Below, one piece after another: positions 15,296-15,764 of a DNA stretch of 64,000 bases. Source of the stretch: Eledone cirrhosa. Its lineage: Eukaryota. The translations under genes and the position numbers were made by a program. A model generated the notes under the pieces. It saw only the letters and a program-made list of their open reading frames with translations, did no database searches and was not told the DNA's origin. Where the stretch lies: positions 22,382,001 through 22,446,000 of the forward strand of contig OZ024760.1 in assembly GCA_964016885.1 (NCBI GenBank), read 5' to 3'. How positions within the stretch are numbered: position 1 is the first letter of the stretch; every line of letters starts with the position of its first letter.

Positions 15296-15382
15296 ATTAT
15301 TAAAAAAAGGAATATAATGACTTCACTTGTAGCTCTAAACAGTTTGATTTAATTTTATATTATTATAATTTGGTAGATCTAG

Positions 15383-15503
15383 TACCCCTGGGCGGTTTCA
15401 CGGTCTTTTGAAATCTCTCTCCAAAGTTCGTTTCAACTTTCCCTCACGGTACTTGTCAGCTATCGGACTCGTCCCGATATCTAGCCTTGGATGGACTTTA
15501 CCA
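15383..15503 (-). rRNA. 28S rRNA fragment (pseudogenic), inverted arm
   Basis: Diverged reverse complement of 15524-15645. Confidence 0.85.
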
Positions 15504-15504
15504 A

Positions 15505-15645
15505 GGAACGCAGCCCAAAGCGGGTGGTAAGCTCCATCCAAGACTAAATACCGGGACGAGTCCGATAGCCGACAAGTACAGCGAGGGAAAGTTGAAGCGA
15601 ACTTTGGAGAGAGATTTCAGAAGACCGTGAAACCGCCCAGGGGTA
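15505..15645 (+). rRNA. 28S rRNA 5'-region fragment (conserved block between D1 and D2), pseudogenic
   Basis: gcagcccaaagcgggtggtaagctccatc..ctaaatacc..cgatagc..acaagtac..gagggaaagttgaa..gaacttt..gagagag..cgtgaaaccg matches the conserved eukaryotic LSU rRNA. Confidence 0.92.
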
Positions 15646-15764
15646 CTAGATCTACCAAATTATAATAATATAAAATTAAATCATTGTTTAGAACTACAAG
15701 TGAAGTCATTCTTTTCCTTTTTTTAAATATACCTAAATGCACCAAGGATTTCATACATTTTCCA

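Follow-up and report, generated by a model that had tools for sequence, protein, structure and literature searches.

LINE-1 chimeras hold host RNA (28S rRNA, U6, tRNA halves or mRNAs) in sense orientation, fused to the 3' part of the element as one insertion, and the candidate routes to them are, as here, RtcB ligation or a template switch (PMC13174262, PMC6789731). Eighteen 28S/L1 chimeras have been reported (PMC13174262), and a route through RtcB ligation has been described for U6/L1 chimeras (PMC6789731). Insertions of EN+ Penelope-like elements (PLEs) have an inverted arm, a one-sided tail of 30-40 bp and a (TA)n target, and the elements themselves show the order RT, linker zinc finger and GIY-YIG, with a hammerhead just upstream of the RT starts (PMC8557442, PMC3846280, PMC11167929). 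In the anole element PAc, the tail is bounded by two RT start sites, and both DNA strands are extended in vitro (PMC11167929). PLE machinery has also moved host sequence in Adineta vaga, as whole intron-containing genes between pLTRs, for which an antisense or unspliced template was proposed (PMC3846280). Animal non-LTR retrozymes carry a type I hammerhead and are proposed to be mobilised by PLEs (PMC7229834; bioRxiv 10.64898/2026.07.22.740005), and some SINEs have 28S-derived parts fused to a retroelement end (PMC5786205).

Here, we describe a 28S rRNA fragment fused to a PLE end in a 64,000-nt stretch of the Eledone cirrhosa assembly (hereafter, the window). The locus has the inverted 5'-truncated arm, the one-sided tail (37 nt, within the usual 30-40 bp) and the (TA)n target of an EN+ PLE insertion. 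It differs from LINE-1 chimeras in that the element is a PLE and its side of the joint breaks at one fixed base, where a ribozyme cut is predicted, in contrast to the variable truncation of L1; in addition, the donor is doubled in inverted arms, there is no poly(A) tail and the target is (TA)n. Compared with the EN+ PLE insertions described, foreign RNA stands at the ribozyme cut, while the work on PAc favours uncut RNA (PMC11167929). Unlike the Adineta vaga genes, the passengers are spliced sense fragments that meet the element at the cut and are present twice, as a hairpin. Unlike retrozymes, the element is of an autonomous type rather than a tandem non-coding unit, and the evidence consists of mis-joining products instead of circles. 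Finally, the 28S-containing SINEs are amplified as families, whereas this fusion is single-copy and comes from the 5' domain of 28S. Two features are new relative to known chimeras: the break on the element side is fixed, at the predicted ribozyme cut, and the passenger is doubled. Among the open-access papers listed in searches on PLE chimeras, none describes host RNA joined to a PLE at its hammerhead cut; Repbase entries may describe such copies.

We conclude that the locus is one insertion, in which a PLE end and 28S rRNA probably came together through a cut at the predicted hammerhead, joining to broken rRNA, and copying twice in (TA)n. The identity of the parts, the single copy, the junction base, the hotspot at that base and the recurrence of the joint with other RNAs, one of them spliced, are observations.

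A palindrome of 28S rRNA and a Penelope-like end

The palindrome has inverted arms at 15345-15503 and 15525-15683 (159 nt, 94% complementary), which reach outward to ~15300 on the left and ~15728 on the right, with a (TA)n target on both sides. Its features, together with a nearby remnant, are as follows.

14506..14540, + strand: separate short remnant of the same element end, with its own (TA)n (86% over 36 nt)
15285..15299, no strand: (TA)n target, left (from the sequence)
15300..15383, - strand: Penelope-like part of the left arm, between the predicted ribozyme cut and the short 3' end, without tail (from the end classes)
15384..15503, - strand: left arm, 28S rRNA, 120 nt, junction as in the right arm (92.5% to host)
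15504..15504, no strand: single base at the head-to-head joint, fitting neither template (from the host 28S comparison)
15505..15644, + strand: right arm, 28S rRNA, 140 nt, domain I, Rfam model positions ~278-416 (95% to host)
15644..15645, + strand: 28S/Penelope junction, at the parent's predicted hammerhead cut, first base after H17 (from descriptor and hotspot)
15645..15728, + strand: right arm, Penelope-like part, to the short end site (from sequence comparison)
15729..15765, + strand: 37-nt one-sided tail, to the long end site (from comparison including locus L119)
15766..15787, no strand: (TA)n target, right (from the sequence)

The hairpin loop is formed by the first 20 nt of the right-arm 28S, and the palindrome consists of one long-ended arm (to 15765) and one short-ended arm (from 15300). 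The non-rRNA part is longer on the right (121 nt, 15645-15765) than on the left (84 nt, 15300-15383) because the right arm has the extra 37-nt extension. A sequence-only reading of this DNA had described a fold-back with 28S in both arms, each fused to the same tail of roughly 80 nt. LSU sequence is indeed present in both arms, with extents that need correction to 15505-15644 and 15384-15503, and the same element end is present in both, with the 37-nt extension having been omitted. The reading was right about (TA)n near both sides and about the repetition of the tail end at 14509-14526. A 183-nt contig from sequencing run X1, which may be the assembly's own sample, covers 15265-15445, including the left junction, with 2 differences. 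The locus itself is probably inert.

A MITE or fold-back DNA transposon was considered and rejected: the ends differ by the tail, the 5' extents vary and the parent encodes an RT. Elsewhere in the window, more long palindromes lie in (TA)n at 16023-16485, 1918-2313, 2550-2799, 51646-51851 and 34532-34789, and fold-back elements in (TA)n with canonical CUGANGA/GAAA motifs, which belong to other PLE-type families, at 3233-3522, 13791-14000, 45460-45686 and 47490-47874. Across 12 other palindromes and islands of the window, the hammerhead descriptor described below gave one match (13791-14000), and inspection by eye recognised no captured RNA. An Rfam scan of the whole window gave 520 low matches, and the 150 listed were all microsatellite-driven miRNA models. 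We take 13129-13578 to be a C-terminal fragment of an RTE-like LINE ORF, which ends at 13578. The end of another high-copy repeat (15110-15284) adjoins the left arm; this repeat is also found at L172, L181, L026 and L252, and at L172 and L181 the PLE tail is broken up by a longer copy that ends in CTAG, presumably a Helitron-like end.

The 28S part and its junction in the genome

Both arms match the Rfam eukaryotic LSU model (76.8 and 74.1 bits). A search of the organism's own 3.0 Gb assembly with the 28S piece, in which all 26 candidates were scored, gave 27 matches: the two window arms, 20 full rDNA-type copies (93-95%) and 5 fragments. The 22-nt junction, searched with up to 2 mismatches, gave one forward and one reverse match in the 3.0 Gb, both in the window arms. 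As the 28S/Penelope junction occurs only at the two arms of one locus, it represents one event and not a family. The rDNA-like units (L032-L051; 90-99% identity) are spread over seven contigs (G000:C1, C2, C3, C4, C6, C12 and C25).

The sequence-only reading had proposed a 28S-headed, SINE-like family in which the rRNA end, as hammerhead stem III plus GUA, mimics the ribozyme cleavage site. SINE28 is an example of 28S sequence fused to a retroelement end and amplified as a family. At this locus, such an explanation has a negligible probability. Besides the single locus, none of the other 25 28S matches, including the fragments L053-L057, joins the tail, and the element base at the junction is also joined to other donors, whose ends are unrelated. 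It is the joint that recurs, with different RNAs. A relaxed hammerhead descriptor found no hammerhead in the 28S piece, across the junction or in the host 28S; the scan of window arm and host gave one core-like heptamer without stems. Past the junction, the host 28S reads GGGGU-UAAAC rather than GGGGUA in 20 of 20 full rDNA-type matches; since the present-day host continues in this way, the GUA triplet in the window was made by the junction. What speaks for the mimic is that the 28S of a related organism appears to read GGGGUA here (a single U then A, at the loose ends of runs X4 and X5), in which case the triplet may be ancestral rRNA.

Over 120 nt of 28S, the arms show 3 shared changes against the host, along with 4 and 6 private ones, and at one of the three shared changes the related organism does not differ from the arms. 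Because the related organism's 28S seems to match the arms at the junction and at this one change, the insertion may predate small changes in the host rDNA, which we regard as side evidence.

The parent Penelope-like element

The tail is the end of a high-copy repeat, its exact 23-mer having at least 1200 copies in the genome. Walking upstream from it leads to an RT (RVT_1, E 2.9e-10) and then a C-terminal GIY-YIG (E 1.2e-8); at locus L118, the two follow each other in this order on the same strand as the tail. The copies are broken by stops and frameshifts. The translations of L118 and L120 show CxxxxCxxC before GIY-YIG and CxxC inside its core, and the Neptune/Nematis type of EN+ elements is defined by a CX2-5CxxC linker zinc finger and two cysteines in GIY-YIG (PMC8557442). 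On its predicted domains, the parent is thus a C-terminal EN+ PLE of the Neptune/Nematis type, which bears out the earlier view of the locus as a retroposed chimera with a PLE-type tail.

Among the arms in L127-L212, there are two end classes ~34-37 nt apart (58 long, 52 short and 17 other). At L119, the 37-nt tail runs on into the ORF, as it does in PAc (PMC11167929). A ~170-nt SINE-like repeat is found repeatedly inside the AT-rich ATAAT repeats of the PLE tail (L092, L116, L163, L167, L175 and L178).

A predicted hammerhead with its cut at the junction

Just upstream of the position that corresponds to the junction, the parent contains a type I hammerhead motif with a one-bulge stem I, the core UUGACAA, a 4-bp stem II, GAAA, a 6-bp stem III closing a long loop, and U17. 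Tested against YUGANRA with positions 3 and 8 paired, GAAA and UH, the core conforms as the U3-A8 variant with U17, an uncommon hammerhead cut base. The junction base is exactly the predicted cut. The U3-A8 variant is known from Schistosoma PLE hammerheads (PMC4209133), and a U3-A8 hammerhead has been reported active in vitro (PMC3088659).

Applied to both strands of four long copies, the descriptor had one match, in L065, and three older copies failed; 300 shuffles of 5.3 kb gave none. Among decayed copies spanning the region, 15 of 54 passed, with an identical cut in all 15. All three stems were present in 2 of 10 folded copies, the fold energy was no better than that of shuffles (z -0.07), and the Rfam hammerhead models did not match the parent motif. 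On this motif-level evidence, the candidate ribozyme is the parent element's and no rRNA mimic. The idea that the junction lies at a ribozyme cut site thus holds for the parent's predicted cut and not for the rRNA; the proposed comparison of the junction with the hammerhead of the tail's parent can now be made, and the two coincide.

A break hotspot at the predicted cut

We counted non-element bases directly before the cut position and found 64 genome matches, versus 5 for a control 6 nt upstream (a longer and somewhat less sensitive pattern) and 8 one base downstream. A set chosen independently of the junction was assembled from 83 loci picked by the tail 23-mer alone (86 fetched, 3 duplicates dropped), which yielded 53 arms scorable at the site and 71 anchor hits that were not scorable. 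Of these arms, 49 of 53 continue intact; the other 4 have their break in the 12 nt upstream, in each case at the cut.

The 64 hotspot matches were fetched and sorted by eye (63 shown, one of a pair being merged). Seven are false matches, in which an intact element has a local mutation, and 35 are run-offs onto target DNA or the partner arm, without a donor. In another 11, at 10 loci, the element is joined to parts of its own ORF in sense orientation; 2 show a short repeat of the bases that directly follow the cut (L215, L216); 5, at 4 loci, are joined to other sequence, namely 28S (2), UBA1 at L230, an H3-like sequence at L235 and the donor at L262; and 4 were left unsorted. The single-base hotspot and the fusions suggest, as genomic evidence, that cut RNA gets reverse-transcribed. 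We also considered a cut one base further 3' combined with ascertainment of A-ending donors, and rejected it: among its 8 matches, 7 were inspected and none has a clear host donor.

It is improbable that the hotspot instead marks a place at the base of a stable hairpin where RT pauses or nucleases attack, with no ribozyme cut. The missing Rfam match and the unremarkable fold energy agree with such a place, as does a second, broader cluster of 5' truncations 90-110 nt upstream of the cut (L065 numbering; 20 of 55 arms), in the vicinity of the core and the 5' strand of stem I. The PAc data agree as well: in vitro, cleavage was dispensable and uncut RNA was the main substrate, and no RNA reads started at the PAc cut (PMC11167929). 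However, a pause would have to reach single-base precision at the very base predicted by a complete hammerhead core, which appeared in 0 of 300 shuffles.

Other captured RNAs

The insert at L230 is UBA1 (E 1.6e-43). It aligns with four exons of the host gene, which lies on another chromosome. The introns are missing from the insert, which points to an RNA template, and the insert is present in both arms, 98% identical over 352 nt, with an identical joint. The locus (L287 / G000:C2:280825300-280827600) appears as a ~350-bp perfect-looking hairpin of spliced UBA1 between two PLE ends. Separately, a ~50-nt tandem array from a UBA1 exon end lies inside the host gene (L286; G000:C27:19685600-19687500). 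Taken together, sense 28S in the window and spliced UBA1 at L230 are host RNAs in chimeras with a retrotransposon other than L1.

At L235:1421-1504, a histone H3-like mRNA 5' fragment stands at the same cut in one arm only (best E 0.004 on 19 residues). For the donor at L262, which we take to resemble a tRNA or 7SL, a genome search at 2 mismatches gave no source. L195, which is additional to the 64-match set, has the same joint, and its donor is a different repeat. As this donor is an interior point of a high-copy repeat that is itself palindromic, L195 says little about two-arm copying. Donor orientation is sense in 13 of 13 loci with an identified donor (28S, UBA1, H3-like and 10 own-ORF). 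At L225, the start of the ORF runs back into the tail region, and this layout is, as read from the sequence, that of a short cut RNA with its two ends joined.

Two arms and a probable double priming

In 37 of 37 adjacent inverted pairs, exactly one arm is long-ended; three of the pairs seem to be duplicates of another three. At the 5' side, the short-ended arm extends beyond its partner in 10 pairs and the long-ended arm in 7, and 20 agree within 15 nt. Donor and joint are common to both arms in the window, L218, L224, L230, L253, L262 and L270, plus L195, whereas the arms of L213 and L214 differ at the cut. At L230 and L262, the short-ended arm carries more of the donor than its partner, and each arm has sequence that the other lacks.

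These extents bear on an explanation by a single cDNA, either self-primed by fold-back, as proposed for PLE inverted junctions (PMC3846280), or given its second arm later at the DNA level by template switching or conversion in the palindrome. In the window, a single arm has both the loop and the tail; taken by itself, this fits fold-back, and the arms share changes. Against this, the tail-less arm is the longer at the 5' side in 10 of 17 informative pairs, the arms of L230 and L262 complement each other as above, and the end of the short arm is at a fixed position, corresponding to one of the sites where RT starts in PAc (PMC11167929). We therefore regard this explanation as highly unlikely; fold-back of cDNA as a general route is largely refuted by the 5' extents of inverted pairs.

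Because fold-back copying cannot give an arm any sequence that its partner is missing, we infer two primings on RNA, and copying from two start sites fits the in vitro behaviour of PAc (PMC11167929). With two primings, the same donor and joint in both arms would mean that the same RNA was read twice. Not every template can have been pre-joined, because the arms of L213 and L214 differ at the cut. The arms also share changes against the source in UBA1, more so than in 28S, and these may reflect later conversion between arms, which is why arm identity alone is no proof of a shared RNA.

Discussion

In the mechanism that we propose, the element RNA would be cut in vivo by its own predicted hammerhead. 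The two RT start sites would lie ~85-120 nt downstream of the 5'-OH left by this cut. The freed 5' end would then be joined to the 3' end of another RNA, in the window a broken rRNA. The usual partner would be the element's own far end, in which case the intact junction is rebuilt and no trace is left. One DNA strand would prime at the long start site and the other at the short one, both being strands of one cut in (TA)n; both primings would copy one and the same RNA through the joint, after which the resulting cDNAs would be joined head to head.

For the joining step, RtcB-type ligation to a cyclic-phosphate end appears somewhat likelier than an RT jump, which also has an appreciable share. 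In the donor sequence, the base after the captured piece is A in 10 of 13 cases (one allowing a one-base slip; P ~0.01 at 41.5% A), the exceptions being the window (host 28S U), L195 and L251. The captured piece itself ends in C or U in 10 of 13, versus ~40% expected before A in the ORF, in what is a small sample. Cyclic-phosphate RNAs in mouse are cut at C/U-A (PMC6853296), and retrozyme RNAs with 5'-OH and cyclic-phosphate ends are circularised by RtcB in vitro (PMC7229834). By analogy, the base pattern at the donors fits RtcB ligation of cyclic-phosphate fragments to a 5'-OH.

The bias towards a next-base A fits a one-base-paired RT jump equally well. In this alternative, which as a full account of the chimeras is possible but less likely, the ribozyme cuts and no ligation follows: RT reaches the cut 5' end, leaves the template there and moves to a nearby RNA by pairing its last T with an A, the first cDNA splints the donor, and the second RT crosses at the same base. 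The 35 run-offs without a donor among the 64 hotspot matches, the short self-repeats at L215 and L216 and the arms that differ at the cut in L213 and L214 all speak for such jumps. However, two crossings at one base would be needed at 7-8 loci, and a one-base jump does not predict the C/U excess, small as the sample is.

It is conceivable, if slightly less likely than not, that PLEs normally transpose through a hammerhead-cut monomer circled by the host tRNA ligase, so that mis-ligation captures a cyclic-phosphate RNA and twin priming writes the hairpin. Were this true, the chimeras would be a genomic record of ribozyme cleavage in vivo and would mark a route to hairpin retrocopies of host genes, with capture of rRNA, spliced mRNA and the element's own broken message.

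For the PLE hammerhead, one report notes that evidence in vivo is lacking (PMC4209133) and another found cleavage dispensable in vitro (PMC11167929); the hotspot and fusions bear on its role. The formation of PLE inverted repeats can be followed with a natural tracer, the unique passenger that both arms carry. PLE machinery also makes spliced retrocopy fragments in the form of perfect hairpins, and the 28S and UBA1 hairpins, if transcribed, could give double-stranded RNA against rRNA or housekeeping genes.
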